NCBI GenBank assembly: GCA_903881545.1 | Contig: CAIRTQ010000048.1 | Coordinates: 25,914-89,913, forward strand | DNA: 64,000 bases | Direction: 5' to 3' | Origin: an uncultured Elusimicrobia bacterium | GTDB lineage: Bacteria > Elusimicrobiota > Elusimicrobia > UBA1565 > UBA9628 | In this document: one piece after another, positions 11,424-35,482 of the stretch | Layout of the letters: every line of letters begins with the position of its first letter | Numbering within the stretch: the first letter of the stretch is position 1 | Notes under the pieces: generated by a model | What the model saw: only the letters and a program-made list of their open reading frames with translations | Databases searched by the model: none | Told to the model about the DNA's origin: nothing | Program-made: the position numbers and the translations under genes

Positions 11424-11426
11424 TCT

Positions 11427-15900: not shown

Positions 15901-16681
15901 GATGGGCGGTCGAACGAACGCGCCCGTCATCCCGGCAGCCGAGCGGCAGGTCTTCCTGCGCGCCCTCGAAAACGGGGCCGTGAGCGACTCGTCCGGCGAA
16001 CTGATCCACGGCGCCTTCTTCGCGGCGCTCGCAAGCCGCGACGCCGGGCTGGCAAGGGAGGTCCACGACGGGCCGGTCAAGCCGTTCACCCTGAGCGTGC
16101 TCCAGGCTCCCGAGGGCAGGCCGGCGGAGCGCATCCTCGCTGGCGGCGAATATTGGTTTCGCTTCACGGCCATGGGCCCGAGGGCGGCGTCCTTGTGCCT
16201 GGCCTGGGAGGGGGGGCAGGCCTTGCGCATCGGCCGGATTCGGTTTGCCATAGGCGAGGTCCGGCATCCGGCGGAGGAAGCCGAGGTCCGGGCATCCGGC
16301 GCCTTTGAGATAGAATTCCTTTCCCCGGCCGCGTTCAAATGCGGTGACAGCCACCTTCCCCTGCCCGAGCCGGGCCTGCTCTGGGATGGGCTCGACCGCA
16401 AATGGGCCCTGGCCTCGGGGTCGCCTGGGGAAATGATTTCGGCTGACGCATGGCGGCGGGTGGTGCGCCTGCGGGAGCATGAGCTGCGCACCGTGGCTTT
16501 CCGCCTGCGCGATTGCATCATCCCGGGCTTCGTGGGGCGGGCGGTCTTCGAGACCGACAAGCGGGCGCCCGCGGACCTGCGCTCACGCGCCGCGCGCCTG
16601 GCCGCCTTCGCCCGTATCGCGGGCGTCGGGGTCAAGACCACGGTCGGCATGGGCCAGGTCCGTACGCGCTTGCTTCCGTAG
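15893..16681 (+). CDS. cas6: Cas6 endoribonuclease
   Basis: C-terminal G-rich loop ARIAGVGVKTTVGMGQV. Sits between the effector genes and cas1. The ATG overlaps the upstream stop. Confidence 0.7.
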   Translation: MNRMGGRTNAPVIPAAERQVFLRALENGAVSDSSGELIHGAFFAALASRDAGLAREVHDGPVKPFTLSVLQAPEGRPAERILAGGEYWFRFTAMGPRAASLCLAWEGGQALRIGRIRFAIGEVRHPAEEAEVRASGAFEIEFLSPAAFKCGDSHLPLPEPGLLWDGLDRKWALASGSPGEMISADAWRRVVRLREHELRTVAFRLRDCIIPGFVGRAVFETDKRAPADLRSRAARLAAFARIAGVGVKTTVGMGQVRTRLLP

Positions 16682-16727
16682 ACCCCATTCCGCACTGCAA
16701 CCTCGCGCAGTCCGTGCGCGTTATTTC

Positions 16728-17699
16728 ATGGGGACCATGCCAGCTCTCTACATCCTGGACCAGGGCGCCGCGTTGGGCAAGGAATCCGAGCGCATCGTGG
16801 TGCGCAAGGAGGGCGCCGTCATCGCCGAATTCCCACTGGCCAGGATAGAGAAGGTCCTGCTCTTCGGGGCCGTGCAGGTTTCCACCCAGGCCATCGGCGC
16901 TCTCCTGGAGGCGCGCATCCCCACGGCGTTCTGCAATTACGGCGGCCGCCTGCGCGGCGTGCTGACGCCGGTGGGGGGCAAGAACGTGTTCCTGCGCGTC
17001 TGCCAGGTCCGAAGGCTGGATGATGCGCCCTTCCGGCTGGCCGCGGCCAGGGAGAGCGTCCTGGCGAAGCTCCGCGGCCAGCGCTCCTTCCTGGCGCGGT
17101 CCGAGCGCAACGAGCCCGGCGGCCGCGAGGCGGCCCTGGCCGAGCTCGCGCGGCTGCTCGCGGACGCTGCCGGGGCCGGGGGGATCGGGGTCCTGCGGGG
17201 CGTGGAGGGGCGCGCCGCGGCGGTCTATTTCCGGCAGTTCCCGGGCATGCTGAAATCGGATTGGGGGTTCCCCGGCCGCCGCCGCAGGCCGCCCACGGAT
17301 CCGGCCAACTGCCTTCTTTCGTTCGGTTACGCGGTGCTGACCAACGACGCGGCCTCCCTGCTGGCGGGGTATGCGCTGGACCCGTGCATCGGTTATCTGC
17401 ACGAACTGGACTACGGCAGGCCCTCGCTGGCCCTGGACCTCATCGAGGAGTTCCGCGTCCCGGTGGTGGACCGTACCGTGGTGCGGTTCCTGAACCTGAA
17501 CATGGCGGGAAGGGATGATTTTGAGGTTTTTGAGGATGGGCTTCGCATGACGGATGCCTGTCGGAAGGCCTTTCTGTCCGAATACGAGCGCACTGTGCGG
17601 GATGGCAGACTGCGTGATGCGATGCGCAGACAGATCGAGGCGCTCTGCCAGGCGATATTGGAAGGCAGAGGCTATCATGCCCATCGCTGGGAAGCATGA
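16728..17699 (+). CDS. cas1: Cas1 integrase
   Basis: LYILDQGAALGKESERIVVR...IEKVLLFGAVQVSTQAIGALLEARIPTAF is the typical Cas1 N-terminus. Precedes cas2 and the array. Start chosen at the internal Met of the 16479 ORF. Confidence 0.85.
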   Translation: MGTMPALYILDQGAALGKESERIVVRKEGAVIAEFPLARIEKVLLFGAVQVSTQAIGALLEARIPTAFCNYGGRLRGVLTPVGGKNVFLRVCQVRRLDDAPFRLAAARESVLAKLRGQRSFLARSERNEPGGREAALAELARLLADAAGAGGIGVLRGVEGRAAAVYFRQFPGMLKSDWGFPGRRRRPPTDPANCLLSFGYAVLTNDAASLLAGYALDPCIGYLHELDYGRPSLALDLIEEFRVPVVDRTVVRFLNLNMAGRDDFEVFEDGLRMTDACRKAFLSEYERTVRDGRLRDAMRRQIEALCQAILEGRGYHAHRWEA

Positions 17700-18200: not shown

Positions 18201-19336
18201 GTCGGAAAGAAGTGACTCCCTGATAAGGGATTGAGACCCGTAACTTCTCTCTCTGTTGCTTCGTCATAGTTTCTCGTCGGAAAGAAGTGACTCCCTGATA
18301 AGGGATTGAGACGGACTTGGCCTGCGCTATGAGACTGCGGGCGAGGGTAGTCGGAAAGAAGTGACTCCCTGATAAGGGATTGAGACCCTCGAACTCGGCG
18401 TCCGATAGGGGGACGATGCCGGTCGGAAAGAAGTGACTCCCTGATAAGGGATTGAGACCGAGTGATAGACATCGACTCGCGCTTGGCGGCTATGTCGGAA
18501 AGAAGTGACTCCCTGATAAGGGATTGAGACCTGGCTTCGGCTCGATATTTAGCGCTCGGTAATGTTGTCGGAAAGAAGTGACTCCCTGATAAGGGATTGA
18601 GACTATCGCCGTGGCGCGCATCTGCGCCAAGGTGGCCGTGTCGGAAAGAAGTGACTCCCTGATAAGGGATTGAGACTTCGAAGAAGCCGCCTGCTTCACC
18701 ACATATCTGACGCGTCGGAAAGAAGTGACTCCCTGATAAGGGATTGAGACGACCCCGTCCGGATCATTACTTGTGTAGCAGTTCATTTGTCGGAAAGAAG
18801 TGACTCCCTGATAAGGGATTGAGACCACGCCGCGCTCGCCGCGCTCCACGCCGCGCTCTCCGCGTCGGAAAGAAGTGACTCCCTGATAAGGGATTGAGAC
18901 TTATTGCCATATAGAAGACCACAGCCGCTTTGATGGTCGGAAAGAAGTGACTCCCTGATAAGGGATTGAGACACCGTCTCGGGCCAGGCCGGATGCTTTC
19001 TCACAAAGGTCGGAAAGAAGTGACTCCCTGATAAGGGATTGAGACCTGGAAAGAGTGTGTTGTCCCCTTGCTATGTCCAAGTCGGAAAGAAGTGACTCCC
19101 TGATAAGGGATTGAGACAAGGCAGAGCCTTCACCGATCCGGACGACGTCCGTCAGGTCGGAAAGAAGTGACTCCCTGATAAGGGATTGAGACGAAGGAGG
19201 CGCGTCTGATTGGGCGTGAACGTGTAGTCGGAAAGAAGTGACTCCCTGATAAGGGATTGAGACTCGCCGCCGAGCCACACGCCGCCGCGCCACTCGCCGG
19301 TCGGAAAGAAGTGACTCCCTTATGCTGTACAGGCCT
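18201..19336 (+). CRISPR. CRISPR array: 15 full copies plus 1 degenerate terminal copy of a 37-bp repeat GTCGGAAAGAAGTGACTCCCTGATAAGGGATTGAGAC, with 34-38-bp spacers
   Basis: Exact repeat copies start at ~18201, 18276, 18350, 18422, 18494, 18567, 18640, 18714, 18789, 18864, 18936, 19009, 19081, 19156 and 19227. A truncated, diverged copy starts at ~19300. The repeat has an internal hairpin (TCCC TGATAA GGGA) and a 3' ATTGAGAC handle-like end. Leader side and orientation are consistent with cas1-cas2 upstream. Confidence 0.95.
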
Positions 19337-19355
19337 AGCCCGGTCAGTTCCAGAG

Positions 19356-21140
19356 ATGATGGTTAAGCGCGGATGCCCCGTGCGCCAGTCAAGGAGGAGT
19401 GCAATCATAGCCGCCAAAACAGTTCGGGCGCTTCTGCATAAAGCCGCCGCATCCGACCCCGCCCTGCGCGCCGCCCTGCGCGATCGCCGCCTCGACCGCG
19501 CCCTCGGCGAGATCCCGGCCGAGCCATTCATCCTCTCCACCAAGACCGACCCGAACCAACTGCAGTACTTCTTCGCCGGCAAAAAGGCCACCTTCGTCCA
19601 CCGTTTCCCGCATAACGTCTCGGTAGGCGCCCCCGGCCAGGCCGTCCTCGCGCTATCGGCGCTCAGGCTCAAGCCCGGCATGTCCGTGCTCATGGTCGGC
19701 GCCCGGGGCGGCTTCTGGGAGGCGCTCATCATGAGCATCTTGGGGCCCCGCGGGCGTTTGGTGGTCGTCGAGGCCGACGGCGAGGCCGCGCGGGCCACCA
19801 TCCGCAACCTGCGGCGGACCCACCGCGACGGCGGCGTGCTTGTAGTCCCGGACGATTACCCCCTGCGGGGCTTCCCCGTGGGCGCGCCCTACCACCGCAT
19901 CCTGATTTCGGCCGCCATCGAAGCCCCGCCCCGGCCGCTGATCGCGCAGTTGCGGCCGGAGGGCGAACTGGTCGCGGCGATAGAGCGCGAGGGAGGGCAG
20001 ACCCTCTGGCGCTATGCCGCCGGTGAGAAGGCGCAGCTACTGGGTCCGATCCAATTGCCTTCCTTCCTGAAGAGGGACGAATGCGGCCTGTGGCGGCTGC
20101 GCATCGGCCAGAGCGGCAAGGAAGGCGGGCTTCGCCGGCTCGATTTCACCCTGGAGACCCCGGGCGAGACCGTTGCGGTGCGGGCCCGGGCGCAGTTGTC
20201 ACGTTCGTGCGCCGAAGAATGGAGACGCGACCTTGCGGCGCTCCTGCGCGTCGATGCCCCGTCCGCGCGCGGGCAGGATCTCAGACAGCGGCGGATCGAG
20301 AAGATCGGCCGCCACATCTGGACGCATCTCCTGCCCCGGGAGATCCGGGAGAAGCTCTCCCGCGCGGAGACGGCGCGCGGCTTCATCATGCTCTGCTCGG
20401 ATGAGGACGAGGTGCCCTGGGAGCTGACCATGGTCCCGGGGACCGGCGGGGCGCGCGACAAGCACCTCTGGGAGCGCAGCATCGTGTCCCGGCGGCCCCA
20501 AGCCTCGGCCCTGCGGCTGTCAGGAGGCTACGCCTGGCGGCCGCTGAGCGCCCTGCTGGCCTTCACCCCGGGCCGCGGTTTCGGCGGGGAGGCGGAGACG
20601 CGCGAGGTCCGCCGCATACTCGAAGGCGCGGGCGTCGGCGTCCGCGTGGCGCGCGGCCGCCGCGAGCTCGACGTGCTGCTCGCCGAAAGACGGCGCTTCG
20701 ACATATTCCATTTCGCGGGCCACGCCGAGATCGATCCGGCCTGCGCCCGGCATAGCCGGCTGTGGCTCGACGAGCCCATCACGGCCGGGGAACTGCGCAA
20801 CCGCATGGAAGGGGTGGGTGGGGCGAGCCTGGCGTTCCTCAACGCCTGCCGCTGTGCGGGCGGGAAGGGGAAGGACGGCTTCGGCAGCCTGCTCAGCGTG
20901 TTCCTCGACTGGTCCGAGACCGCGGTCGGGCCGCTCTGGGAGGTCTGCCCGTTCGGGGCCCGCAAGGTCGCCAGGACCTTCTATAAGCGGCTCGTCGAGG
21001 GGCACTACATGGGCCACGCCCTGCGCGCCGCCAAAGGCAAGACCCGCAACGTCTACGGCGACCGGGACCTGACCGCGAGCTGGGCCGCTTATGTCCTCTA
21101 CGGCGACCCCGCCCGGGCCCTCTTCCCCCTGCCCGACTGA
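19356..21140 (+). CDS. Fusion of a PCMT-like (protein-L-isoaspartate O-methyltransferase fold) domain and a CHAT-family protease
   Basis: The N-terminal half aligns in pattern to the PCMT family (APYHRILISAAIEAPPRPLIAQLRPEGELVAAIE...LGPIQLPSF), but the SAM glycine motif is degenerate (LMVGARGGFW). The C-terminal CHAT dyad is FHFAGHAEID (His) and AFLNACRCAGG (Cys). Start at the internal Met just past the array. Confidence 0.6.
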   Translation: MMVKRGCPVRQSRRSAIIAAKTVRALLHKAAASDPALRAALRDRRLDRALGEIPAEPFILSTKTDPNQLQYFFAGKKATFVHRFPHNVSVGAPGQAVLALSALRLKPGMSVLMVGARGGFWEALIMSILGPRGRLVVVEADGEAARATIRNLRRTHRDGGVLVVPDDYPLRGFPVGAPYHRILISAAIEAPPRPLIAQLRPEGELVAAIEREGGQTLWRYAAGEKAQLLGPIQLPSFLKRDECGLWRLRIGQSGKEGGLRRLDFTLETPGETVAVRARAQLSRSCAEEWRRDLAALLRVDAPSARGQDLRQRRIEKIGRHIWTHLLPREIREKLSRAETARGFIMLCSDEDEVPWELTMVPGTGGARDKHLWERSIVSRRPQASALRLSGGYAWRPLSALLAFTPGRGFGGEAETREVRRILEGAGVGVRVARGRRELDVLLAERRRFDIFHFAGHAEIDPACARHSRLWLDEPITAGELRNRMEGVGGASLAFLNACRCAGGKGKDGFGSLLSVFLDWSETAVGPLWEVCPFGARKVARTFYKRLVEGHYMGHALRAAKGKTRNVYGDRDLTASWAAYVLYGDPARALFPLPD

Positions 21141-21142: not shown

Positions 21143-22114
21143 TTAGGCGGAGGTTCCCAGCAGGCCTGCGGTCAGCGTCGCGGCGTCGAGCAGCCTGCGG
21201 CCGCGGACGATGCGCATCGCGCAGAGTTCGCGGGTCGCATTCTTGAGCAGAAGCAGGATATCCGCGGGCGGGCGGTGCATGCGGCGCGCGATCTGCGCCG
21301 GGGAAAGGCCATCGACCAGGAGCATCTTCAGCGCGGCGCTTTCGGCCGGGTGGTCCTCGGCGAGGGCCTCAAGGTGCTCCTCCTTCAGGATGAAGTGGCC
21401 GCGGACGTAGTCGAGCGCGGCCTTGGCCGTGGCGAGGTCGTAGCCCATCTCGCGCAGAAGGGCCGCTGAGCCTCGGGTCACCAGCAGTTCGGTGTCGTCG
21501 CGGTCCATGATCGGGCCCGCTTCATCGTGCGGCACGCGCAGGACGTGCGTCAGGAACAGCGCGAGCTGGTAGTTTTCGTTCTTAAGCGCGTAGAGCGCAT
21601 CCATCACCTCGCGCCTGAGCCGTGCGACCCAGAGAGCTTCGAGCGGCGGCAGGTCCTCGGCGGAAGTGACCTCCGCCAGCTCCCGCTGCGCTCCTTCCTC
21701 GGTTGATATCTTGCCGTTGAGCGAACGGGCCCTGACGATGATTTTTCCATCGTCCTCGTCGGATCCGGACTCCCTTTGGGGCCGTTCTTCGCTGCTGTAG
21801 ACGCGGTACTGGGTCCGGGTGAAATTGTACGCGACCGTATCGGACCAGGAGAGGAAATTGCCTTTCTCCGGGTTCCATTTCTCGTTACGGATCTGGAACA
21901 GGACGTATGCCTCGGCGGCCTTGATGTGGAGCTTCAGATCCAGGAAGAACGCCTTTCGGTCGCTCGGATGGAAGATCCTGAGCATGGCTTTCTTGACGGA
22001 GGCTTCCAGGCCCGGGCGCATGAGAGCCTTCAGGGATTCCTCGCCCCGGCGCTTCCTGTTCGAATAGCTCCGGGCGAGAGTGTTCGCCCGTTCGTGGTCC
22101 CTAGGCATGGTCAT
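21143..22114 (-). CDS. Atypical sigma-70-family factor
   Basis: Region-2-like FLSWSDTVAYNFTRTQYR and region-4-like HTH LSPAQIARRMHRPPADILLLLKNATREL, with a ~100-aa acidic insert between them. Tail-to-tail with the CHAT gene. Confidence 0.45.
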   Translation of the reverse strand: MTMPRDHERANTLARSYSNRKRRGEESLKALMRPGLEASVKKAMLRIFHPSDRKAFFLDLKLHIKAAEAYVLFQIRNEKWNPEKGNFLSWSDTVAYNFTRTQYRVYSSEERPQRESGSDEDDGKIIVRARSLNGKISTEEGAQRELAEVTSAEDLPPLEALWVARLRREVMDALYALKNENYQLALFLTHVLRVPHDEAGPIMDRDDTELLVTRGSAALLREMGYDLATAKAALDYVRGHFILKEEHLEALAEDHPAESAALKMLLVDGLSPAQIARRMHRPPADILLLLKNATRELCAMRIVRGRRLLDAATLTAGLLGTSA

Positions 22115-22246
22115 CCTCCTGAACGATAGGACATTTTACCAAGTTGCAGTCTGCCGCGTTCTGCGGATTTGCAGGGTGCGCGGAGGCTGGTAAAATGCTT
22201 TCATCGGGACAGGATGCCGGCCCAACTGACATAAAGGAGCAGACCC

Positions 22247-24709
22247 ATGCCTACCAACGCCATACGTGCCCGCCGGCCGGCCGAAGCCGTTGTTTCGTTC
22301 ATTCCTCTGGGCTCCGTCGGAGACATCGGCGCCGGCTGCCATTATCTGAAGTTCTCGGGCACCCCGCTCCTGCTTGACAGCGGCATGATGTCGGAATGCT
22401 CCGCGGGCTCCGGGCTTCCCGCCTACGACCGCGTCGGGGGCCTCGCCGATGTGGAGGCCATCGTCATCAGCCATGCCCATCACGACCATATAGGAAGCCT
22501 GCCCATCACGGCCCAGCGCTGTCCCAAGGCCAAAATCGTCATGACCGAGGCCACCCGGAAGATCGCCCTGCTCATGCTCGCCGATTCCGGCAGGCTCATG
22601 GCCAAGAGGGCGGCGGCCGACGATGGCGGCGGCAAGCCGCCGCATGCCGGGCTTTATCAGGAGGACGCCCTGCGCAAGCTGTTCGAGGAGAGGGTCGTGA
22701 CTGTCGCCTATAAGGCGCCCCTCGCCGTGGGGGGCCTGACCGTGAGGCTCTTCGACGCCGGGCATGTGCTCGGCTCGGCCATGGCGCTGGTCAGCGACGG
22801 CCAGGCGAGCGTGCTCTACACGGGCGACTTCTGCGACCAGCCGACCATCCTGCACCAGGGGGCTGATTTCGCCTCGGTGGGCAAGCCCGACATCGTCATC
22901 ACCGAATCCACCTATGGCTCCGACATGGGCCGGCACGACCGCGCCGAGACCGTGCGCAAGCTCGGCCAGGCCATCAGCGCCACCATCGCACGGGATGCCA
23001 TAGCCCTGATCCCCGCCTTCGCCCTCGGCCGGACCCAGGAGGTCCTGTCCGCTATCCTCGCCCTGCAGAAGAGGGTGAACCTGCCGGCCGATGTCCCCAT
23101 CTATCTTCGCGGCGGGATCAGCCGCAAGATAAACGATATTTACGAAGGTTGTGAGTGGCCGGAGTTCGATGCGGGGCATGGCCCGATCGGCACAGGCGCC
23201 GGCATCGTCATCGCCACGAGCGGCTTCCTGACGCCGGGCACGGCGTCGTTCGGGATAGCGTCGACCATCGCCCCGAATTCGGCCAACGCCATCATCTTCC
23301 CCAGCCTTTATTGCTCCAAGACGAGCTATTACAAGAATTTTATCGAGGCGCTGCAGCCTAAATGCCGGATGGAGGAGGTGGACTTCTCGGCGCATGCCAA
23401 GGGATCGGGCATCGTGGAGAATATCTCCGGCCTGAAGCCGCAGAGCGTCATCCTGGTGCATGGCGGTAATGCCCAGCGGGCCGCCCTCCAAAAGGCTTTC
23501 CAACAGCGCGGCATCACCGCCTTCTATCCCGCCTCGGCGGGCGATGAGATCCTGGCCGTCAAGAGCGGCGGAGCCTGGAGTGTGCAGTGGAGCGCGGACA
23601 TGGAAGCCGTCATCGTGACGGTCGGGACCTCGGCCCTGCGTTCCTTCGAAAAGAAGCACGGCGGCCGGGCGCCGGAATCCGTCGAGGAGCTCGCCGGGTT
23701 CGTCGCGGGGAGTCCCCGAAACTGCGCTGAGATGAACACCATCAGCCGGATGCCGCCCCAGGGCCCGCCGGCCAAACGCTTCTTCTATCTGCTCGCCTCG
23801 GCCGCGGCCAAGGACTCCGGCATGCTCTGCGCGCAGGCGTTGGCCCTGCACCTGCAGGATGCGGGCTTCCGCGTCAGTATCTCGCCCGTCGACGGGCTCG
23901 AGATGAACGCCCGCCGGTTCCGGGACAAAGGGCTGCCGAACCTGGTGGACGCGCTCATCTCGATCGCCCTGCGCCATCCCCGGGCGCGCATAGTGGCGAC
24001 CGGCGGCTTCAAGGCGACGACGGCCTTCGCCACCCTCGTGGGGGCCTGCCTCAATCTCGAGGTCCTTTATGTGCACGAGGACATGTCGTCGGACGACCCG
24101 CTGGTGCGGATGCCGGCTTTCCCGGCGGTCTTCGACTCGAACCTGGTGGCCTTCTACGCCAGCGCGATCGAGGCCGTGGTGAAACACACCGACCGTCAGC
24201 TCGCGGAGAAGCTCTGGCGCAAGCTGCCGCCTCAGCTCCAGTCGCTTTTCGACCGGGACCGAAACCTGGCTTTGTCTCCCATGGGTCGGGTGCTGTGGGC
24301 GGCGCATCGCCGCCTGCAGGCCGCGGCGCAGGCCGCCGCGGATCCGGGGCTGAAGGGCGCGGAGAAGTTCGGCTGGCCGAAGGAGGCCTGGGTGATGCCG
24401 GGGGTGTGGGAGCGCGGGGAGGATGGGACCTTGACGGTCCGCGACGCCTGCTTCGAGACTTTGCGCAACCGCCTGCGGAACCACTTCCTCGTGACGCATG
24501 TGCGGGTCTACCCGCCCGAAGAGGGAAAGCCTGCGGCCGAGGCCCCTCTGATCAAGCGCTTGAGCGTTAAGCGCAAGAAGATCGACTGCTATTTGCGCGC
24601 CGGGAAGTTATCCCAGAAGCTGAGCATCTTCGTCGAGCCTCCTTTCGAGCATGTGGTCGTGTCCTCTATCGGGGTTGACCTGGAGTGGAAGCCGCTGTCT
24701 GATCTGTAG
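22247..24709 (+). CDS. beta-CASP metallo-beta-lactamase (MBL) nuclease fused to a C-terminal CARF domain
   Basis: MBL motif ISHAHHDHIGSLP and a beta-CASP-type FSAHAKGSG. CARF motifs downstream: VIVTVGTSALRS and IVATGGFKATTAFATLVGACLNLEVLYVHED, which closely parallels the Csm6 CARF DLTSGTKAMS...VVYVDN. Confidence 0.6.
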   Translation: MPTNAIRARRPAEAVVSFIPLGSVGDIGAGCHYLKFSGTPLLLDSGMMSECSAGSGLPAYDRVGGLADVEAIVISHAHHDHIGSLPITAQRCPKAKIVMTEATRKIALLMLADSGRLMAKRAAADDGGGKPPHAGLYQEDALRKLFEERVVTVAYKAPLAVGGLTVRLFDAGHVLGSAMALVSDGQASVLYTGDFCDQPTILHQGADFASVGKPDIVITESTYGSDMGRHDRAETVRKLGQAISATIARDAIALIPAFALGRTQEVLSAILALQKRVNLPADVPIYLRGGISRKINDIYEGCEWPEFDAGHGPIGTGAGIVIATSGFLTPGTASFGIASTIAPNSANAIIFPSLYCSKTSYYKNFIEALQPKCRMEEVDFSAHAKGSGIVENISGLKPQSVILVHGGNAQRAALQKAFQQRGITAFYPASAGDEILAVKSGGAWSVQWSADMEAVIVTVGTSALRSFEKKHGGRAPESVEELAGFVAGSPRNCAEMNTISRMPPQGPPAKRFFYLLASAAAKDSGMLCAQALALHLQDAGFRVSISPVDGLEMNARRFRDKGLPNLVDALISIALRHPRARIVATGGFKATTAFATLVGACLNLEVLYVHEDMSSDDPLVRMPAFPAVFDSNLVAFYASAIEAVVKHTDRQLAEKLWRKLPPQLQSLFDRDRNLALSPMGRVLWAAHRRLQAAAQAAADPGLKGAEKFGWPKEAWVMPGVWERGEDGTLTVRDACFETLRNRLRNHFLVTHVRVYPPEEGKPAAEAPLIKRLSVKRKKIDCYLRAGKLSQKLSIFVEPPFEHVVVSSIGVDLEWKPLSDL

Positions 24710-24822: not shown

Positions 24823-25641
24823 TTATGGCACGGCGTGACACTGTTGAAACTGCTGATGAATGAGGTGTCGCAGGTTCTTATCCAGCGCATCGCCGATCTG
24901 CCTCCCCCAGGTACACCATTGAGCATTCCCAACTCCTTCTATGGGCCTTCGTGGATGCGGCAATACATTCCCTCCGTTGGGAAGTCGGATGGCTTCAGGA
25001 AGAAATCCATTATGCTTTTGCATTTGGGGCACATCGCCGTACGGAATAATCACTACGTTATCCGGGACGGATTGCGGTAAGACCCCGTCGTGCCCTACGC
25101 GCATCGCGACTGATTGGTTTATATACTCATCATAATCCATGTGGAATAACGCAGGGCCGCCGGCATCAATGTACGCACCGTTGGAATGGTTGGTAAGAGG
25201 GCATGGGAATAACTCCGCAAGCATTACTTCGCATGTTATAGCTGAGCGGCCCAAGAAGTCTCGCTGATAGAGCCTGCGAATCGCAGGCGGGGGGGGACTA
25301 TCCGGCTCGTAGCCTGCAATGCCAGCTAGAAGAACAATGAGCTTGTCCCAGGTGGGCTGGAGTGTCGGGAGGTGCGCCAGAACCTGGTTTTGAATTTTTT
25401 TGCAGGCCTCTTTAAATTCAGGCCCATCGGGATAATGGCGCAAATATTGCTCATGGAGTTCCCGGACATCTCCGCAGAAACCTGGTGCGGGATTCTCTGC
25501 ATTTTGGTGGCCTCGATATAATTGCGTCAGGACTTTAAGACGATAATTCACCTCTGCGGGAATCGTTACCCGTTCTTCCAATCCTAAAAGCCATATCCGC
25601 GCTTCTCGTCGTCCATAGCCGATGAAATGGTTTAGTGGCAC
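24823..25641 (-). CDS. Hypothetical protein (lower-GC segment)
   Basis: 272-aa ORF with a non-repetitive translation and no recognisable motifs. Confidence 0.3.
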   Translation of the reverse strand: MPLNHFIGYGRREARIWLLGLEERVTIPAEVNYRLKVLTQLYRGHQNAENPAPGFCGDVRELHEQYLRHYPDGPEFKEACKKIQNQVLAHLPTLQPTWDKLIVLLAGIAGYEPDSPPPPAIRRLYQRDFLGRSAITCEVMLAELFPCPLTNHSNGAYIDAGGPALFHMDYDEYINQSVAMRVGHDGVLPQSVPDNVVIIPYGDVPQMQKHNGFLPEAIRLPNGGNVLPHPRRPIEGVGNAQWCTWGRQIGDALDKNLRHLIHQQFQQCHAVP

Positions 25642-25658: not shown

Positions 25659-27779
25659 TTACGCCGCACTCCCCACCAGCTTAAACGCCGCCCAATGATA
25701 CGGATGCGGATGCGCGCGCATCACCGCCAACTGCGCCTGCCGTAACGCCTCCGCCTTCCGCTTCCCCTCGGCCAGATGCTTGTAGAACGCCGTCACCAGC
25801 CGTCGGGCCACCGCGTCCTCGATGTCCCACAAGGTCACCACCACCGACCGCGCCCCGGCCATCAAGAACGCCCGGTGCACGCTCTCCACCTCGTCGCAGC
25901 CCCGGTGCCGCCCCTGCGCCGTCTTGCAGCAGCTCAGAAACGCCAGGTCCAGCCCCGACAAAGGCAAGTCCAAAATCTCATTCACGCGGAGCAAGCCGTC
26001 ATCCCCATCGTGCTCCGCCAGGATCAGGTGCGAGCCCAAGGCGTCGTCCGGCGAAAACTCCCCGTGGCAGGCGATGTGCAGAAGGCCGCAATGCCGGCAA
26101 AGCGCCAAAGCCTTCTTGTTCGCCTCAGTCCCCACGAATACCTTCGCGCCCGGGAACACCTTGGCGATCTCCGCGGCCTCTTCCTCGGCGTGCGCCAGCC
26201 CGCCCGTAGGATTGGCCAAAGCCAGCAGGCCTTTCCGCGAAGGCCGCGGATGGCTTGAGGCCGCCAGCATGGACGCATGGGGCAGATAGCTCACCGGCAA
26301 GCGCTCCAGCAGCGGCTTGCCGTCAGCCAAAGGCAAGGCCGCGAAAGGCACATCGATGAGAGCGCCGCTCGGCACTACATGCAGACAGGAGGCGGCGTCA
26401 ATCTCATCAGCCACAGGCGCGATCAAGTCCTGCGCCAGGCGCTTCAAAGCCCAATTGCAGAATTGCAGGTTCTTGTCCGTCTGCGCTTGGCGCAGGAAGC
26501 CCTTGATCTGTCCGACCTTGGCGGTCAGGGCCTCCGGGGCCATTTCGATGCGGCGGGCGGCCAGGCCCTTATTGCTCACCGCGAAGATGGACAAGGCGTG
26601 GCGGCCCAGGTGATAGTCGAGAAGAAGTTCGCCTTCGGCAAGCCGGGCCGAAAGCTGTTTGGCTGTCAGAACGGCCTGCGGCTTGACCTTGGCATCGTCG
26701 CTGGTCCGCGAGCGCAACTGCTCGATGAAGACCCGCGCCTTGCAGCGTTGGGAAAGCTCGAGGCCCAGCTCCGGCCGGTCGAGCTGATGGGCCAGGCAGA
26801 TCCCCAGGTCGTAGATGCCGAGCTTGCCCTTCTGGTAGCCGATCCGGCTGTCGTCCGTGGAGTATGTCTCCCGGCCGGATTCCATGATAGCCACGGCCTT
26901 GAGGCATTCCTCAAGCGCGGGCTCAAGCTGGCCTCGGTCGCGCAAAATCTTGGCGAGATGGTAGTTCTCCCATTGGCTCGGGGTATCGTTCTCGGCGTTC
27001 ATTTCCATGGACTGGCGCAGGATCGCCTCGGCCCGGTCCAGGTAGCGCTTGGCGGCCTTTGGATCGGACTCGCGCAGGAATTTGCTCCAGGAGCGGCACA
27101 CCCGGGCTAGCTCGCGCAGGGCCTTGGCCATCGAGCCCTTGGACCTCTCGTCCTTTATCCGCTCAAAGGTATCCAGGGCTTTCTTGAGGTGCTCCTCCGC
27201 ATTGGAAAGGCTCACCTTGGTCTTGGGCCTGTGCCGAGCCCAGATGCGCCCGATCGACCGATAGAAGAGTGCCTCGTAGCGGGTCCATCTATCATCGGCG
27301 CCCCAGGTTTTTTCCAGGTGGCGGAAGACGCTGAGCCCGTTGCTGCAGGCGGCCATCTGCTCCTCTTCCGTGGCGCCGCTCTCGCCCATGGCGCGCCAGG
27401 CCTGCATCAGCCATTTGCAGTTCTCTTGATTGGTTCTGGGCAGGGGCTTGAGCCATTCGAGAGCCTTGAGGGCCGAATTCCGGGAAACACCCTCATGGTT
27501 GAGCGTGCCGCCGAGCATGGAATGCCCCACCCGGGCTTTGCCTGCTTCCAGCCCCATCTTCATCTCTTCAAAGATAGGGACGGCGGCCGCGAAGAGCTGA
27601 TAGGAGCTTTCCAGCCCCTCCGCGATCTCCCGCTCCTCCTTGTCGTTCAAGGCGAAGTACAACTTCCAGCCCGCGTTGTAGGCGGCCTTGGCGCTGGCCG
27701 CGGTGGGGGAACTGCTGCAATCTGCGATGAGCCGGTCCGACTGCCCTTTGTCGGGCGGTTCTTGAGGCATGGCGCTCAA
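25659..27779 (-). CDS. TPR-CHAT protease (Csx29-like architecture)
   Basis: N-terminal TPR-like helical repeats. The C-terminal CHAT dyad is LLHIACHGEFSPDD (His) and LAFLSCCKTAQG (Cys). Coupled to the upstream sigma gene (27776-27779 overlap). Confidence 0.65.
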   Translation of the reverse strand: MSAMPQEPPDKGQSDRLIADCSSSPTAASAKAAYNAGWKLYFALNDKEEREIAEGLESSYQLFAAAVPIFEEMKMGLEAGKARVGHSMLGGTLNHEGVSRNSALKALEWLKPLPRTNQENCKWLMQAWRAMGESGATEEEQMAACSNGLSVFRHLEKTWGADDRWTRYEALFYRSIGRIWARHRPKTKVSLSNAEEHLKKALDTFERIKDERSKGSMAKALRELARVCRSWSKFLRESDPKAAKRYLDRAEAILRQSMEMNAENDTPSQWENYHLAKILRDRGQLEPALEECLKAVAIMESGRETYSTDDSRIGYQKGKLGIYDLGICLAHQLDRPELGLELSQRCKARVFIEQLRSRTSDDAKVKPQAVLTAKQLSARLAEGELLLDYHLGRHALSIFAVSNKGLAARRIEMAPEALTAKVGQIKGFLRQAQTDKNLQFCNWALKRLAQDLIAPVADEIDAASCLHVVPSGALIDVPFAALPLADGKPLLERLPVSYLPHASMLAASSHPRPSRKGLLALANPTGGLAHAEEEAAEIAKVFPGAKVFVGTEANKKALALCRHCGLLHIACHGEFSPDDALGSHLILAEHDGDDGLLRVNEILDLPLSGLDLAFLSCCKTAQGRHRGCDEVESVHRAFLMAGARSVVVTLWDIEDAVARRLVTAFYKHLAEGKRKAEALRQAQLAVMRAHPHPYHWAAFKLVGSAA

Positions 27780-29167
27780 CCTTTTATTGCGTCGCGGCGC
27801 AGGCGCGCGTAATAGCGGTCGCGCTCCGCGCCGGAAAGCCCGCGGGTGGGGGAGCTCTGGCCCTGGGGCGGGGTGCGCATGGCCGCGGCGAGGACCGGCT
27901 CTGTGATGTCGAAGCGTTTCATCAGGCGCTTGAGGAGTCCGGCGGTCAGCAGGCCGGCAGGAGCGGTGTCCGAGAGGATGGCCATGCAGTCATCTTCCGT
28001 GATTCCCAGCCCCTTGGCCAAAGTCGCGGGGTCGCCATCCACGCGCGAGGTGATGAGCTCGCCCAAGGACTGCCGCTTCTCGCTGTCGCCGGAGAAGCCC
28101 AGGGCCACGGCCACGGCGCAGAGGTCGGCCAATTCCTGGGCGCCCGGCTCCACTGCGCCGGCGCGTGTCGCTGGAGCCATGTCCGGGTATTGGGCAAGGG
28201 CCTGCTCCACGCTCTGCCATAGCCAGTCGTCAAGCTTGGGGTCTTCGGCGGCGGGCAGGGCGGGCTTGGCCCGCTTGACCTTGGCCTTGGAAAGGGCGAT
28301 AAGGGCTTGGCGCAGGGTCGCGAGCGCCTGGCGGGGTTCTTGGCGCAGGCCTTCGGCCAGCTTCCCCACGTTGAGCGGCAACTGGCTGGCGAGCTTGAGG
28401 GCCTTCTTGTGCGCCGGGGCCTCCACCAGTTCGACATCGGAGTCCCGGAGGTCCATCCTGGACAGGACAAGCGCTTTTAGTTTGTCGAATCGGGCGTCCT
28501 TGTAATCGGGCAGGGCGCAGAACTTCTGGTGGATGGCAACGCAGGCCCTACGGAAGTGGCTCGCCAAGGTCGCGCGGGGCATTTCGAAGATGGCGCTGAG
28601 GACCTCGTCACTGTGCCCTAAAAAGACCCTGCCGACCCAGATCGCGGCCGCTGTCTCGTTGGCCAGACCGCGCTCGGCGCAAAGGATTGCGTTGAGCATG
28701 TCCATTTCCATGGCCACGCCCACCGGCTGGTCGCAGTAGGCCTGGGGCTCCGCTCTCCGGGAGCGGGGTCTTTCGCTCTGCTCCTCGTCCTCTTCGTCGA
28801 GGTCATACTCGTAGGGGAGCTTTTTGCGCTTCATCGTGTCGAGAAATGCATTCTTGGCAACGGAGAGGGCATAATTCTTGAAATTTTCCGGTTCGTACTG
28901 CTTCTTCTTGAGGGCGCGGGATATGTTGCCCAAGGTGACGCTGAGAATATCGCCGGGGTCTATGTAGGCAGGAACGCCGCTTACGCCGCCGGCCAGGCGG
29001 GAATCCCGTACCTTGGAACATATGAAGCCTTCGACGCAGGCTTGGGCCAGTTTGAGGATTTTGTTGAGCTGGTCTTCGTCAGGCTTCTTATAATAGAGGG
29101 CGATGAGCGCGTCGGCCTCTTTCCCAAAATCCGAATAGATGCTGTTCGCCATAGCTCTCCTGTTCAT
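27776..29167 (-). CDS. ECF/sigma-70-family factor with a ~230-aa C-terminal extension
   Basis: Region 2 is ENFKNYALSVAKNAFLDTMKRKKLP. Region 4 HTH is ETAAAIWVGRVFLGHSDEVLSAIFEMPRATLASHFRRA. A long extra C-terminal region follows. Confidence 0.55.
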   Translation of the reverse strand: MNRRAMANSIYSDFGKEADALIALYYKKPDEDQLNKILKLAQACVEGFICSKVRDSRLAGGVSGVPAYIDPGDILSVTLGNISRALKKKQYEPENFKNYALSVAKNAFLDTMKRKKLPYEYDLDEEDEEQSERPRSRRAEPQAYCDQPVGVAMEMDMLNAILCAERGLANETAAAIWVGRVFLGHSDEVLSAIFEMPRATLASHFRRACVAIHQKFCALPDYKDARFDKLKALVLSRMDLRDSDVELVEAPAHKKALKLASQLPLNVGKLAEGLRQEPRQALATLRQALIALSKAKVKRAKPALPAAEDPKLDDWLWQSVEQALAQYPDMAPATRAGAVEPGAQELADLCAVAVALGFSGDSEKRQSLGELITSRVDGDPATLAKGLGITEDDCMAILSDTAPAGLLTAGLLKRLMKRFDITEPVLAAAMRTPPQGQSSPTRGLSGAERDRYYARLRRDAIKG

Positions 29168-29441: not shown

Positions 29442-30998
29442 TTATGCCTCGCTTAGCTTCGGCCCATCCTCGGCCTCCGGCTCAAACACCACCTCCTTAA
29501 GCCCCGCCCTCTCCGCCCCGCCGCACGCCTCGTCCCCGTTCTCGAACAAGATCGGCGCCAACCCCGCCTCCAGTATCCCCTTCAGGCCGCGCGCTCCCGT
29601 ATGGTTTTCCAACGCCCGCTCGGCCACCCACTCCAGCGTCGCCTGCGGCACCCGCAGGTCCATCCCGCTGGCCCCAAACAAAGCCCGGTACTGGCTCAGT
29701 AGATTATTCCGCGGCTCGGTCATGATGTGGACCAAGTCCTCCTTGGTCAAAGCGTCCAACGCCACCACGCTGGCGAAGCGCCCCACGAACTCAGGCGCGA
29801 AACCGTAGGCCACAAGGTCATCCGTGGTCGCCTGCGCCAGGCAACTGCCGCCTGCATCCGCCTGCTGGCTATGGCCCGCGGAAAAGCCAATCTGCCGATT
29901 CTTCTGCCTCGCCTGGATGAGCTCCTCCATCCCAGCAAAGGCCCCGCCGGCGATGAAGAGGATATTGCCCACGTTGTAAGTCGCGCCCTGATGGGTCACC
30001 GTGTCGCCCTCCAGCAGCTTCAGCAGTTCCTCCTGCACGCACCGCCCGCTGACGTCCCTGTTGCTGTTGTGCGCCCCAATGGCCTCCCTCGACGCGATTT
30101 TGTCCACCTCGTCTATGTAGATGATTCCGGTCTCCGTGCGCTTAAGGTCGTTGCCCGCGGCCTTGTATAGGGCGACCACCATCTCCTCCACGCTCCCTCC
30201 CACATAGCCCGTCTCCGTGTACTGCGTGGCGTCGCAGATCACCATAGGGACGTTCATGACCTTCGCCAAGGTCCGGCACAGGTGCGTCTTGCCCGTGCCC
30301 GTCGGCCCCAGGAGCAGGATGTTCGCCTTATGCAGTTTGTCCATGCCCTTGCGTGTCTTGTTCAGCTTGACCGTCTGCAGGTGCTTGAATACCGCCGTGG
30401 CGATCGCCCGCTTGGCGCGGTCCTGGCCCACCACATACGCGCAGAGCTTCTGATGGAGCGACCGGGGGGAACACTTGGCCGGCGGCCGGCCGGCCCGCTT
30501 GGGCTTCTTGCCCACCACGCGGTCGAGGACCGCAGGCTCGACCGTGAATTGTTCCGGCGCCCCGGAGGACTGGAACCTGTATGCAAAGCCGGGTACGACG
30601 AGCTTCTTCTTGATGAGCTTGGCGTCGCTCTGCCAGTACTTCATCAGCGCGATCTTTCCCAGATGGCTTGGGGCGCTGACCAGCTTCCGGATCACCGGAA
30701 TCCTGTTGAGCTCGCCTTCAGCGCAGACCGCCGCGTAAACGAGAATCCACAGCATCTGCACCTCGACATCGTCGAGCCTGTTCTTGCGGGCCAGCTTCTC
30801 AAGGGGAATGTCTACTCCGTCGAGCAGTGAAGCTTTGGCCTTGGCCCTGATCTCGCGATACATGGGAAAAAGGCCATTCTCGGCCGGGCTTTCGGAATCC
30901 TCCCGTCCAGGCCTGGACCGGGTCTGCTCGCGCAGGAGTTCGACGAACGCGAAGCAGTCGTTGAGATACTGCGTATTATCGGCGTAGCATTGATCCAT
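29442..30998 (-). CDS. ClpX-like AAA+ unfoldase with a non-canonical N-terminal domain (no zinc-binding domain)
   Basis: Walker A LLGPTGTGKTHL. Also TGYVGGSVEEMV, Walker B IIYIDEVDKIASR, GGAFAGMEELI and LDALTKEDLVHIMTEPRNNLLSQYRALF, all ClpX hallmarks. The first ~190 aa lack the C4 zinc-ribbon. Confidence 0.7.
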   Translation of the reverse strand: MDQCYADNTQYLNDCFAFVELLREQTRSRPGREDSESPAENGLFPMYREIRAKAKASLLDGVDIPLEKLARKNRLDDVEVQMLWILVYAAVCAEGELNRIPVIRKLVSAPSHLGKIALMKYWQSDAKLIKKKLVVPGFAYRFQSSGAPEQFTVEPAVLDRVVGKKPKRAGRPPAKCSPRSLHQKLCAYVVGQDRAKRAIATAVFKHLQTVKLNKTRKGMDKLHKANILLLGPTGTGKTHLCRTLAKVMNVPMVICDATQYTETGYVGGSVEEMVVALYKAAGNDLKRTETGIIYIDEVDKIASREAIGAHNSNRDVSGRCVQEELLKLLEGDTVTHQGATYNVGNILFIAGGAFAGMEELIQARQKNRQIGFSAGHSQQADAGGSCLAQATTDDLVAYGFAPEFVGRFASVVALDALTKEDLVHIMTEPRNNLLSQYRALFGASGMDLRVPQATLEWVAERALENHTGARGLKGILEAGLAPILFENGDEACGGAERAGLKEVVFEPEAEDGPKLSEA

Positions 30999-31278
30999 AC
31001 AGCCTCCAGGTCTCTATCCAAGAGAACGCTGCTGATAGGGCCGAGGTTGCAGGGACGGGTTTGGGGTCAAGGGACGCTGGCGGCTATTTGCCGTTCCATG
31101 ACCCTGCGACCCGCAAGGTCGCAGGGCCGGCGCGAGCGATTCCACTCTCGCGCCGAATTTATGAAAAGCCTTTTTCTCTTACCTCCAGCGCTGGAGGTAA
31201 ACCATCGGAAATTGATGAGAAAATAGGCGCTTTTCTTCGGGCAAGTCGCCGGATGACGATATGAGGGGCTCGGGCCTC

Positions 31279-31372
31279 GGATTTTAACCGGACAGGAGGG
31301 TTTCGGCCTGGGATTTGGGGGAGCCTTAGGATTTTAACCGGACAGGAGGGTTTGCCTGGGTTTTTGGGGAGC
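31279..31372. repeat. Tandem direct repeat (~48-bp unit, 2 copies) upstream of the HNH gene
   Basis: GGATTTTAACCGGACAGGAGGGTTT...GGGATTTGGGGGAGCC occurs twice in tandem, with minor differences between the copies. Confidence 0.55.
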
Positions 31373-31450
31373 CTCGCGCCCTGCACGATGCTTTTGAGGC
31401 GAAGGCGCAGGATAGGGGGAACTATTCTCGGGGTCATTCGTATATTCAGC

Positions 31451-32662: not shown

Positions 32663-32664
32663 CG

Positions 32665-35211: not shown

Positions 35212-35482
35212 GGCCTTCCTGCAAGGCGGCGACCACCAGATGCCGGCAGATGACGGGGCCCTTGTTCATCCGCCGGACCAGCCCTCCCCAGGCCCAATCC
35301 CGGCAGGTGCAGTAGTGCCGGCCCTGGCCCGAGATGTCGAGGTACACATAGCAGGTCCGGCCGTTGTGGCGGGCGCGCAGGACGATCTCCGAGGCCTTGC
35401 GTTCGATCTCATCGAGGCGGACCTCGTCGCGGCTCTTGCGGGAGAACCACCCCGCGATGGACTTCCGCGGCATGGCGATCAT
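35177..35482 (-). CDS. SWIM zinc-finger protein (paralogue)
   Basis: HYCTCRDW...CRHLVVAAL is a SWIM signature. Overlaps both neighbours. Confidence 0.5.
   Translation of the reverse strand: MIAMPRKSIAGWFSRKSRDEVRLDEIERKASEIVLRARHNGRTCYVYLDISGQGRHYCTCRDWAWGGLVRRMNKGPVICRHLVVAALQEGHAALLLSALAA

Follow-up and report, generated by a model that had tools for sequence, protein, structure and literature searches.

A CARF7-linked MBL/beta-CASP nuclease in an Elusimicrobia CRISPR locus: a candidate cyclic oligoadenylate-activated RNase effector

Type III CRISPR immunity has its main output in effectors that carry a CARF domain and are activated by cyclic oligoadenylate (cOA). The known effector chemistries, namely HEPN, PD-(D/E)xK, RelE (Cami1), deaminase (Cad1) and membrane pores (Cam1), have each turned out to be a new mode of stopping a phage. 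A single gene in a 64,000-nucleotide stretch of contig CAIRTQ010000048.1, from an uncultured Elusimicrobia bacterium, raises the question of whether a further chemistry exists. This stretch, in which all positions are counted from the first letter, is called the window hereafter. The gene encodes a metallo-beta-lactamase (MBL) nuclease of the beta-CASP group followed by a CARF domain, and a first-pass annotation made from the letters of the window had proposed it as a cOA-activated nuclease and perhaps a new class of effector. What does such a protein sense, what does it cut, and which system does it serve? The answer that we favour, and to which we give somewhat better than an even chance, is that it is a beta-CASP RNase effector of the neighbouring type III-D(v)-like system, switched on by cyclic tetra-adenylate (cA4), probably self-limiting and acting in trans.

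The fusion itself was borne out. An open reading frame (ORF) of 820 codons plus a stop codon, with an ATG start, occupies exactly positions 22247-24709 of the forward strand, and the profile matches of its two halves lie far beyond chance. The four peptide strings quoted by the first-pass annotation are all present in the translation, HAHHDH at residues 76-81 and FSAHAKGSG at residues 380-388 in the nuclease half, VIVTVGTSALRS at residues 455-466 and IVATGGFKATTAFATLVGACLNLEVLYVHED at residues 582-612 in the CARF half. An AlphaFold2 model of the full-length protein, computed with nine family members as input, reached a mean predicted local distance difference test (pLDDT) score of 80.2 and a predicted template-modelling (pTM) score of 0.77, with disorder confined to residues 1-10 and 695-732 (pLDDT below 50 for the latter). 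A model of the C-terminal half (residues 445-820, 69 sequences) reached a pLDDT of 88.9.

The N-terminal half is related to the RNA-cleaving enzymes CPSF73 and INTS11. Pfam Lactamase_B (residues 40-195, E=5e-10) and RMMBL (residues 372-428, E=8e-11) both match above their gathering scores. Among NCBIfam models the strongest similarities are to aCPSF1 (9e-45) and Cas14 (7.7e-44), both far under the cut-offs for family membership, and a sequence search of the PDB matched INTS11, CPSF73 and Ysh1 at about E 4e-39. With Foldseek, the model of this half aligned to CPSF73 over about 460 columns of the catalytic segment (E 2.9e-32, template-modelling score normalised to the target 0.83), and the structures that it matched, CPSF73, INTS11, Ysh1, aCPSF1/FttA, TTHA0252, Cas14 and RNase J, all cleave RNA. 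MBL motifs 1-4 are complete (D44; H76-A-H78-H-D80-H81; H173; D194), and beta-CASP motifs A, B and C correspond to E220, H383 and H405. The arrangement is that of a beta-CASP domain inserted in an MBL fold with an intact catalytic site, from which nuclease activity may be predicted.

The assignment of residues 452-625 to the CARF superfamily is secure. Pfam Cas_APE2256 (PF09651), a CARF family, matches residues 491-615 with E=1.5e-17 and 64.2 bits against a cut-off of 24.8, NCBIfam TIGR02619 scores 46.2 against 37.45 on the C-terminal half, and PADLOC CARF7 models match residues 453-694 with E-values down to 5e-35, so that the region is not a generic Rossmann fold. The solved structures nearest to the C-terminal half are Cami1 and the Crn1-family ring nucleases Sso1393, Sis0811 and Sso2081. 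The first-pass annotation had likened the CARF motifs to those of Csm6, a comparison that has to be replaced, since the clade is instead CARF7/Crf7 (Crn1/Cami1). Motif I, G460-T461-S462, follows strand 1, and motif II, G586-G587-F588-K589, follows strand 4. In Crn1 the cA4 site is lined by the motifs G9-T10-S11 and G104-x-K106 (PMC10018336), which correspond to G460-T461-S462 and G587-F588-K589 of the fusion. Both Cami1 and Crn1 are described as specific for cA4 (PMC11229360; PMC12409355; PMC12669027 Supplementary Table 2). A CARF domain of the Crn1/Cami1 clade, and not of the Csm6 one, thus points to cA4 rather than cyclic hexa-adenylate (cA6) as the ligand. The resemblance to Cami1 continues beyond the CARF domain, as residues 495-690 align by phmmer to residues 63-261 of Cami1 (8PHB). 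Calling the C-terminal region a CARF domain was therefore right, but a whole Cami1-like module, made of a CARF, a helical and a degenerate terminal domain, had been missed.

The architecture recurs in a rare and divergent family. A word-indexed search of 5.8 billion clusters returned eight proteins that share it at 25-29% identity. When HMMER was run exhaustively over 1.84 billion cluster representatives with the C-terminal half as query, twenty further fusions were added, all with HxHxDH near residue 60-78 and GGFK near residue 553-638. There are thus at least 28 other proteins of this architecture, at 25-30% identity, or about 29 clusters in all when the window protein is included. The ten catalytic residues D44, H76, H78, D80, H81, H173, D194, E220, H383 and H405 are invariant in 29 of 29 fusions, which settles in favour of the first-pass annotation the matter of whether the MBL ligands and beta-CASP motifs are in place. 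On the CARF side, G460, E495, G586, G587, K589 and Y608 are invariant across the same 29 proteins and S462 is kept in 28. Invariance of nuclease and CARF residues at such low overall identity indicates purifying selection on the two-metal site and on the CARF pocket. Among the 25 fusions scanned with Pfam, RMMBL was matched in all and Beta-Casp in 21.

The two halves appear to share their history. By BLAST, 26 of the 29 nuclease halves and 23 of the 29 CARF halves have another fusion as their best partner, some of the stand-alone CARF matches in this comparison being probably gene fragments, and the partners of the two halves agree, as expected if a single ancient fusion was followed by joint divergence of both halves. 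Within the family the window protein branches deeply, and in neither half does its identity to another member exceed 36%. At full length it is absent from the collections searched, in which the only identical sequence is a fragment of 104 amino acids (P0121), 100% identical to residues 717-820 and encoded at positions 73-387 of ENA ERZ18667529 scaffold_52752 (L091). Directly downstream of the fragment, on the opposite strand, lies a gene for a 272-amino-acid protein, of the size and in the arrangement seen at window positions 24823-25641, so that the same or a near-identical organism has apparently been sampled in a public metagenome. A scan of GTDB genomes for close orthologues with MBL patterns turned up beta-CASP genes of the stand-alone kind only, none of them more than 34% identical. 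On viral contigs no fusion was found, only stand-alone beta-CASP genes whose matches reach residue 422 at most, and an anti-CRISPR or viral origin was rejected on that ground. One homologue is annotated at NCBI merely as 'MBL fold metallo-hydrolase'.

Co-occurrence with type III loci, which the first-pass annotation had predicted, is seen in these homologues: CRISPR genes are found in seven of the eight informative contexts, a small sample and not a statistical census, from which P0123 and P0156 were left out as their contigs were too short. Four contexts contain type III effector genes (L001/L002, L003, L005 and L088), and three contain Cas1/Cas2 together with Csx1-like or CARF7 genes (L086, L087 and L089, around P0122, P0124 and P0125). 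The fusions P0005 and P0003 (L001-L003) are located within type III-B operons of the order Cas6-Cmr2-Cmr3-RAMP-Cmr5-RAMP-(420-aa protein or Csx1)-STIV_B116-like-FUSION-Cas1-Cas2-Cas4. The STIV_B116-like (Crn2/DUF1874) gene of these operons, of 108 codons, lies directly upstream of the fusion gene and overlaps it (about 9616-10004), and we take its product to have the DUF1874 fold of the Crn2/AcrIII-1 ring nuclease. Crn2/AcrIII-1 is a ring nuclease specific for cA4 (PMC12409355). The fusion P0007 (L088) comes directly after RAMP-RAMP-RAMP-Csx19-RAMP, the gene order of window positions 7564-13565, and P0004 (L005) is near Cas10, RAMP, CHAT, VWA and dynamin-like genes. A Csx1-like protein of about 415-433 amino acids with an 'MJ1674_2nd' domain is encoded at most two genes downstream of the fusion in L086, L089 and L093; in L093 (P0148) this Csx1-like gene is the sole CRISPR-type neighbour in the sequence at hand. 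The fusion thus seems to travel with other genes of the cA4 pathway, and its recurrence in type III loci with cA4-specific ring nucleases supports a role as a type III effector.

The window locus adds one more case to those of the homologues. Its CRISPR system resembles type III-D/Dv (Table 1), and the array that the first-pass annotation had placed nearby is confirmed. The same annotation had called the Cas10 cyclase-competent. A Cas10 is indeed present, but it is small, and its palm motifs are VLHADGNGLG and CAGDD, so that AGDD stands in place of the canonical GGDD; no canonical N-terminal HD domain was detected in it. It aligns (E 4e-19) to the 575-amino-acid Cas10 of PDB 8S9T, chain C, which is presumably that of the Synechocystis type III-Dv complex. 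In this alignment VLHADGNGLG faces VVHADGNGLG and CAGDD faces LGGDD, and both Asp residues are kept, as is the upstream D-G-N-G-L-G loop. With Ala at the first Gly of GGDD, the cyclase competence of this Cas10 is plausible, not established. A preprint on the III-Dv complex argues from structure that this type of Cas10 is able to synthesise cOA. The gene directly upstream encodes a Csx20-family ring nuclease, and Csx20 has been found experimentally to degrade cA4 (PMC12409355; PMC12669027 Supplementary Table 2). Its presence implies that the type III-D-like system of the window signals with cA4, and together with the two CARF proteins of the locus it supports a working cOA signalling pathway. 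The second of these CARF proteins is of the CARF3 family, which is typically not CRISPR-associated (2025 classification, PMC12669027).

These elements can be assembled into a possible course of events. Upon binding of a foreign transcript by the effector complex, the palm of the small Cas10 would make cOA. The cA4 molecule would enter a pocket formed by two CARF7 domains in a homodimer and contact the G-T-S and G-G-x-K loops, both ligand and homodimer being proposed by analogy with Crn1, Sis0811 and Cami1. In CPSF73-type enzymes the MBL and beta-CASP lobes enclose a cleft that stays shut before activation. In the full-length model the last MBL strand (residues 443-448) and the first CARF strand (residues 453-458) are separated by only about four residues, so that a ligand-induced movement could reach the nuclease directly and open this cleft. 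The two-metal site would then cut RNA non-specifically, as an endonuclease and/or a 5'-to-3' exonuclease that leaves 5'-phosphate and 3'-OH ends, and the cutting would arrest the infected cell or destroy phage transcripts. Both ring-nuclease motifs are retained in the CARF7 domain, which is therefore likely to break down cA4 at a slow rate, and this slow degradation, together with that by Csx20, would switch the enzyme off.

Several observations weigh against such an effector. The Pfam Beta-Casp match of the window protein (residues 263-353) scores 24.5 bits, slightly below the cut-off of 27.7. The DNA-repair MBL family DRMBL gives weak matches in 10 of the 25 scanned fusions, and some beta-CASP RNases also cleave single-stranded DNA. 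Weak matches to Apyc1 and PDEase_II in a few family members, taken with the existence of cyclic-nucleotide phosphodiesterases of MBL fold, leave room for a cOA-degrading role. No cas gene is present in the 13 kb of sequence at hand around the homologue P0009 (L004), whose neighbours are kinase, VWA, FHA, PP2C and ThiF genes. In the window, the Cas10 palm deviates from GGDD as described above, and the fusion gene forms a transcription unit of its own, some 3 kb away from the array, with opposite-strand genes on its flanks. Finally, activation, ligand, substrate and dimerisation are all features that we infer from related systems.

What the terminal domain contributes is the point on which the first alternative turns. 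The PADLOC CARF7 match covers profile positions 3-241 of 344 and does not extend into the models' terminal effector domain. The profile of the terminal domain from 26 fusions is nonetheless homologous by hhalign to the last 120 residues of 77 stand-alone CARF7 proteins of about 350 amino acids (probability 95.2%, E 2.8e-8), and a profile of 43 such proteins aligns with residues 3-365 of the 406 of Cami1 (E 1.8e-38), the C-terminal stretch of this alignment being of low posterior confidence. Foldseek extends the match of the C-terminal half over 361-405 columns with Cami1, against about 277 with the two-domain ring nucleases. From this correspondence in position and fold, the terminal domain is probably derived from a RelE domain. 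As Cami1 acts on ribosome-bound mRNA (PMC11229360; PDB 8PHJ title), and as the domain is kept in 26 of the 29 fusions, one may imagine a directed enzyme whose Cami1-like half docks on the ribosome or on RNA after cA4 binding, where mRNA or rRNA would be cut by the beta-CASP domain or else by a RelE-like domain that is still active. We consider this unlikely. None of 69 relatives has a RelE/ParE Pfam match, a Pfam scan of the terminal domain by itself gave no match, and the domain has no invariant polar residue in the 26 fusions that carry it, the best-kept positions being R742 (16 of 26), Tyr at 781 (19 of 26, Cys in the window protein) and Q790 (21 of 26); three fusions lack it altogether. 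An active RelE was ruled out, given the lack of RelE/ParE matches and of any catalytic constellation. The terminal domain is most likely accessory, with a part in binding or structure, and not a second nuclease.

PADLOC names the nearest stand-alone relatives of this half 'CARF_DUF2103' or 'CARF_RelE', and the DUF2103 label was not adopted because Pfam finds no DUF2103 in them. Some relatives have odd CARF7 architectures (P0192, P0142 and P0205), one being a 970-amino-acid NB-ARC (STAND NTPase)-TPR-CARF7 protein and two being tandem CARF7 proteins of about 760-820 amino acids.

The CARF7 domain could also belong to an enzyme that clears the signal. Such a protein would capture cA4 or its linear products with the CARF domain and degrade oligoadenylates with the MBL/beta-CASP half acting as a phosphodiesterase, that is, as a high-capacity ring nuclease or nano-RNase. 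The Anti-Pycsar_Apyc1 and PDEase_II Pfam matches of some members, precomputed or weak, are of this tenor, as are the membership of CARF7 in the Crn1 ring nuclease clade and its two retained ring-nuclease motifs. Fusions of effector and ring nuclease are also known, for instance Csx1-Crn2 (PMC12409355). On the other side, the nuclease half, which has RMMBL and a complete beta-CASP insert, is specifically of the CPSF73/INTS11/TTHA0252 type, and its close structural matches all act on polymeric RNA. Apyc1-type enzymes are small MBL proteins that are not known to carry a beta-CASP insert. Moreover, a second ring nuclease would be redundant next to the Csx20 of the window locus and to the Crn2 directly upstream in the III-B loci, and more than one ring nuclease occurs in only about 4% of ring-nuclease-positive loci (Hoikkala et al., PMC12409355). 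Taken together, these points make a signal-clearing role quite unlikely.

If the enzyme is an effector, its substrate has to be considered. DNA-repair nucleases exist within the beta-CASP family, and a cA4-activated DNase could cut single- or double-stranded phage or host DNA in the manner of Artemis/SNM1 or, functionally, of Can1/Can2 and NucC. The DRMBL matches (best E 1.7e-4) and a partial NCBIfam match to a ligase-associated DNA-damage exonuclease (residues 149-299, E 1e-17) are in line with this possibility. Callebaut et al. 2002 reportedly associated His at motif C with RNA-type enzymes and Val with the Artemis/SNM1 DNases, and motif C is His in all 29 fusions. RMMBL, known as an 'RNA specificity' domain, is likewise above its cut-off here and found throughout the scanned fusions, the best matches in sequence and structure are all to RNA-processing enzymes, and no structure of Artemis, SNM1 or Apollo is among the top 50. 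RNA is thus more likely than DNA as the substrate, and a DNase is improbable enough to be given little weight. It is less credible still that the protein is an RNA-processing factor placed near CRISPR by chance, for instance a cOA-modulated nuclease for 3'-end trimming of CRISPR RNA (crRNA) or for RNA turnover, even though the nearest stand-alone relatives of its nuclease half are the widespread 'Cft2 family RNA processing exonucleases' of about 460 amino acids and host degradosome nucleases including the beta-CASP RNase J2 are reported to help mature crRNA and degrade targets in Staphylococcus epidermidis type III-A, since fusion to a cOA sensor implies control by an infection signal that arises after crRNA maturation, and since the family is rare and sits among ancillary effector genes (Csx1-like, Crn2, CARF7) and not among core processing genes.

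The cA4-activated RNase effector, then, is the reading to compare with the literature. An MBL/beta-CASP effector is listed in none of the 2024 survey of type III effectors (PMC11229360), the 2025 survey of ring nucleases (PMC12409355) and the 2018 survey of accessory genes (PMC6546367), nor does it appear in the 2023 paper on rare systems (PMC10910872) or in the 2025 CRISPR classification with its Supplementary Table 2 (PMC12669027), where Crf7 is described as fused to RelE and DUF2103. Full-text literature searches that paired CARF with beta-CASP, lactamase, MBL or CPSF returned nothing relevant; Makarova et al. 2020 lay outside their scope, so that an earlier bioinformatic listing is possible. 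No MBL architecture appears among the names of the PADLOC CARF profiles matched (CARF, CARF_RelE, CARF_RelE_like, CARF_DUF2103, CARF_HD and CARF_CYTH_HD). Those profiles, we believe, derive from Makarova et al. 2020. The rarity of the family, about 29 clusters among the 5.8 billion clusters and 1.84 billion representatives, is probably why those of these surveys that use complete genomes omit it. The suggestion of a new effector class made by the first-pass annotation stands insofar as the literature searched describes no characterised CARF/beta-CASP effector, while the claim is a bioinformatic one: the rare, conserved family seems to form a class of CRISPR effectors not described before. A more elaborate proposal joins all parts of the protein, namely that it represents an unrecognised class of type III effector and the first cOA-gated MBL/beta-CASP nuclease, in which a CPSF73-like RNase was added to a complete Cami1-like module and the domain in RelE position lost its catalytic residues and may dock on the ribosome or on RNA. 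We hold this joint proposal tentatively, at rather less than an even chance.

Should the fusion act as a cA4-activated beta-CASP RNase, it would bring a new chemistry to type III immunity, that of a two-metal hydrolytic nuclease whose 5'-phosphate and 3'-OH products RtcB-type ligases should not reseal. It would be a second case, beside the Cas14 of type VII, in which type III systems and beta-CASP nucleases are linked in evolution, and would mean that type III-derived systems have recruited beta-CASP nucleases at least twice, as a guide-directed subunit in Cas14 and as an enzyme controlled in trans by a second messenger in the fusion. It could also serve as a model of how a small ligand opens the closed site of a CPSF73-type enzyme, which bears on the activation of eukaryotic CPSF73 and INTS11, and a metal-dependent RNase triggered by cA4 might become a reporter enzyme in type III-based diagnostics.

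Table 1. Features of the window around the fusion gene, in order of position.
Feature	Position	Strand	Basis or remark
RtcB-like RNA ligase, short (328 aa)	4722-5708	+	head of type III operon
Csx20-family ring nuclease, 140 aa	5718-6140	+	PADLOC Csx20 E 4e-18; directly upstream of cas10, overlaps its start
Small Cas10, 476 aa	6137-7567	+	PADLOC Cas10 E 9e-62 over full length; Pfam Cas10-Cmr2_palm2 above cut-off
RAMP, 196 aa	7564-8154	+	profile search
Csx10/Cas5-like protein	8147-9580	+	profile search
Double RAMP	~9577-10959	+	profile search
155-aa protein in Csx19 position, no profile match	10956-11423	+	gene order as in L088, where the small protein is Csx19
TIGR03986 RAMP, 712 aa	11427-13565	+	profile search
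468-aa protein, no match in any library	13568-14974	+	profile search
CARF3-family protein, 309 aa, second CARF protein of the locus	14971-15900	+	PADLOC CARF3 E 9e-53; between RAMP genes and cas1
Cas1	16479-17699	+	NCBIfam TIGR00287 E 2.5e-71
CRISPR array, 15 identical 37-nt repeats GTCGGAAAGAAGTGACTCCCTGATAAGGGATTGAGAC	18201-19263	+	0 of 100 shuffles gave a match
PCMT-CHAT (CHAT protease fused to PCMT-type methyltransferase)	19257-21140	+	profile search
Weak ECF (extracytoplasmic function)-sigma-like protein	21143-22114	-	profile search
Promoter-like site TTTGCA, 17-nt spacer, TAAAAT, TG extension	22168..22196	+	sigma-70-like consensus match only
Ribosome-binding site AAGGAG	22234..22239	+	7 nt before fusion ATG; read directly from sequence
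Fusion ORF, beta-CASP MBL nuclease / CARF7	22247..24709	+	Pfam, NCBIfam, PADLOC, AlphaFold model
MBL/beta-CASP nuclease module, residues 13-448, CPSF73/INTS11 type	22283..23590	+	Pfam, NCBIfam, PDB sequence matches, Foldseek
HxHxDH metal-binding motif HAHHDH, residues 76-81	22472..22489	+	sequence, family alignment
CARF domain, residues 452-625, CARF7/Crf7 (Crn1/Cami1) clade	23600..24121	+	profile matches, motifs
Helical, winged helix-turn-helix (wHTH)-like middle domain, residues 626-698	24122..24340	+	common to Cami1 and Sso1393/Sis0811 ring nucleases
Low-confidence linker, residues 699-732	24341..24442	+	pLDDT below 50 in full-length model; model of C-terminal half agrees
C-terminal alpha/beta domain, residues 733-820	24443..24706	+	helix, four strands, helix; Cami1 RelE position
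272-aa protein, no assignment	24823-25641	-	profile search
TPR-CHAT	25659-27779	-	profile search
Second weak ECF-sigma-like protein	27776-29167	-	profile search
AAA+ ATPases	29442-30998, 33743-35137, 35479-36807		in both-strand cluster 29442-36807
HNH protein	31352-32662		in both-strand cluster 29442-36807
DUF2201 VWA-like metallopeptidase	32665-33753		in both-strand cluster 29442-36807

The remaining features of the locus are collected in Table 1. The divergent intergenic region 5' of the fusion gene, of 132 bp, holds the promoter-like site. On the opposite strand an antisense ORF of 787 codons (22136-24499) covers nearly all of the fusion gene, in DNA of 65% G+C, and is treated as a shadow ORF. 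The CHAT and sigma-like genes reported by the first-pass annotation do flank the fusion gene. These two CHAT proteases and two weak ECF-sigma-like genes resemble the TPR-CHAT/RpoE module of type III-E and the logic of CalpL/T/S, with Cas10 kept here; no recognisable SAVED or CARF sensor was found in either flanking CHAT protein. The RtcB-like gene that heads the type III operon suggests RNA repair coupled to the damage done by a CRISPR-triggered RNase. RtcB joins ends with a 2',3'-cyclic phosphate, which a beta-CASP nuclease is not expected to make.

Further downstream lies the cluster of AAA+ ATPases, DUF2201 VWA-like metallopeptidase and HNH protein. The fusions P0009 and P0004 also adjoin AAA, VWA, kinase and dynamin-like genes, which hints at a recurrent link to VWA/MoxR-type conflict systems. 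At 38279-39607 (+) a stand-alone MBL protein of 442 amino acids is encoded, which the first-pass annotation had described as a second beta-CASP gene. It does carry a full HxHxDH and beta-CASP-like motif set (HPHQDH, DHS, YTGDF, IEGT, SGHAS and PIHT) and weak RNase J family matches, but no Pfam Beta-Casp match, and is thus a putative second nuclease of the island. The defence island ends near 40-41 kb. It is followed at about 41600-63000 by housekeeping genes, among them those for a class-V aminotransferase, an M20 peptidase, Mrp/complex-I-like membrane subunits, a phosphoketolase, the Lon protease and trigger factor, which indicates that the locus is chromosomal, in a bacterium of high G+C content (about 65%).

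Among known systems, the closest comparison is with Cami1 (CARF-RelE; PDB 8PHB/8PHJ; Crf7), which shares with the fusion the CARF7 clade, the helical middle domain, the position of the third domain and the type III loci, and which is activated by cA4. Cami1 has about 400 residues and a catalytic RelE domain that cuts ribosome-bound mRNA, whereas the fusion adds an N-terminal beta-CASP MBL nuclease of 450 residues and is not a Cami1, because its terminal domain has no RelE signature. The Crn1-family ring nucleases (Sso2081, Sso1393, Sis0811 and Sis0455) have the G-T-S and G-x-K motifs in common with the CARF domain of the fusion. They are however small, stand-alone proteins of about 180-275 amino acids whose sole activity is the cleavage of cA4, while in the fusion the CARF domain is the C-terminal sensor of a large nuclease. 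Hoikkala et al. applied a limit of at most 250 amino acids in length for the Crn1 type (PMC12409355), and a stand-alone Crn1 ring nuclease was ruled out for a protein of 820 amino acids with an intact nuclease module of 450.

As for the nuclease half, CPSF73, INTS11, Ysh1, aCPSF1 (FttA) and TTHA0252 are like it in fold, in MBL motifs 1-4, in motifs A-C with His at motif C and in RMMBL. These enzymes serve in housekeeping 3'-end processing, termination and decay of RNA and are regulated by partner proteins or KH domains, and they have no sensor of cyclic oligonucleotides. Cas14 of type VII, classed as an RNase (PMC12669027), is like the fusion a beta-CASP nuclease recruited by a type III-related CRISPR system, and the similarity can be traced in NCBIfam (over residues 21-300), in the PDB sequence search (8YHD/8YHE, E about 1e-20) and in Foldseek (9J9E, rank 43). 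Cas14 is however a crRNA-guided integral subunit, held on Cas7/Cas5 through a Cas10-like domain in a type VII system without cOA signalling, whereas the fusion carries a CARF module and would act in trans. Identity with Cas14 was ruled out, as the protein reaches 150 of the 800 bits required by the cas14_MBL_CASP model, which matches residues 21-300 only, the C-terminal half is a CARF module and the locus has a Cas10. A special kinship was ruled out as well, as NCBIfam rates Cas14 and aCPSF1 about equally and INTS11/CPSF73 reach about 137 bits in the PDB search against about 76 for Cas14.

Finally, Csx1/Csm6 (HEPN), Can1/Can2/Card1 (PD-(D/E)xK) and CARF-PIN proteins follow the same logic as the one proposed here, that of a CARF domain joined to a nuclease, encoded beside type III cas genes and switched by cOA. 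The fusion differs from them in that its nuclease belongs to the unrelated two-metal MBL/beta-CASP superfamily and is placed N-terminal to the CARF domain. Its products would be expected to bear 5'-phosphate and 3'-OH ends, in contrast to the 2',3'-cyclic phosphate left by HEPN and RelE enzymes.

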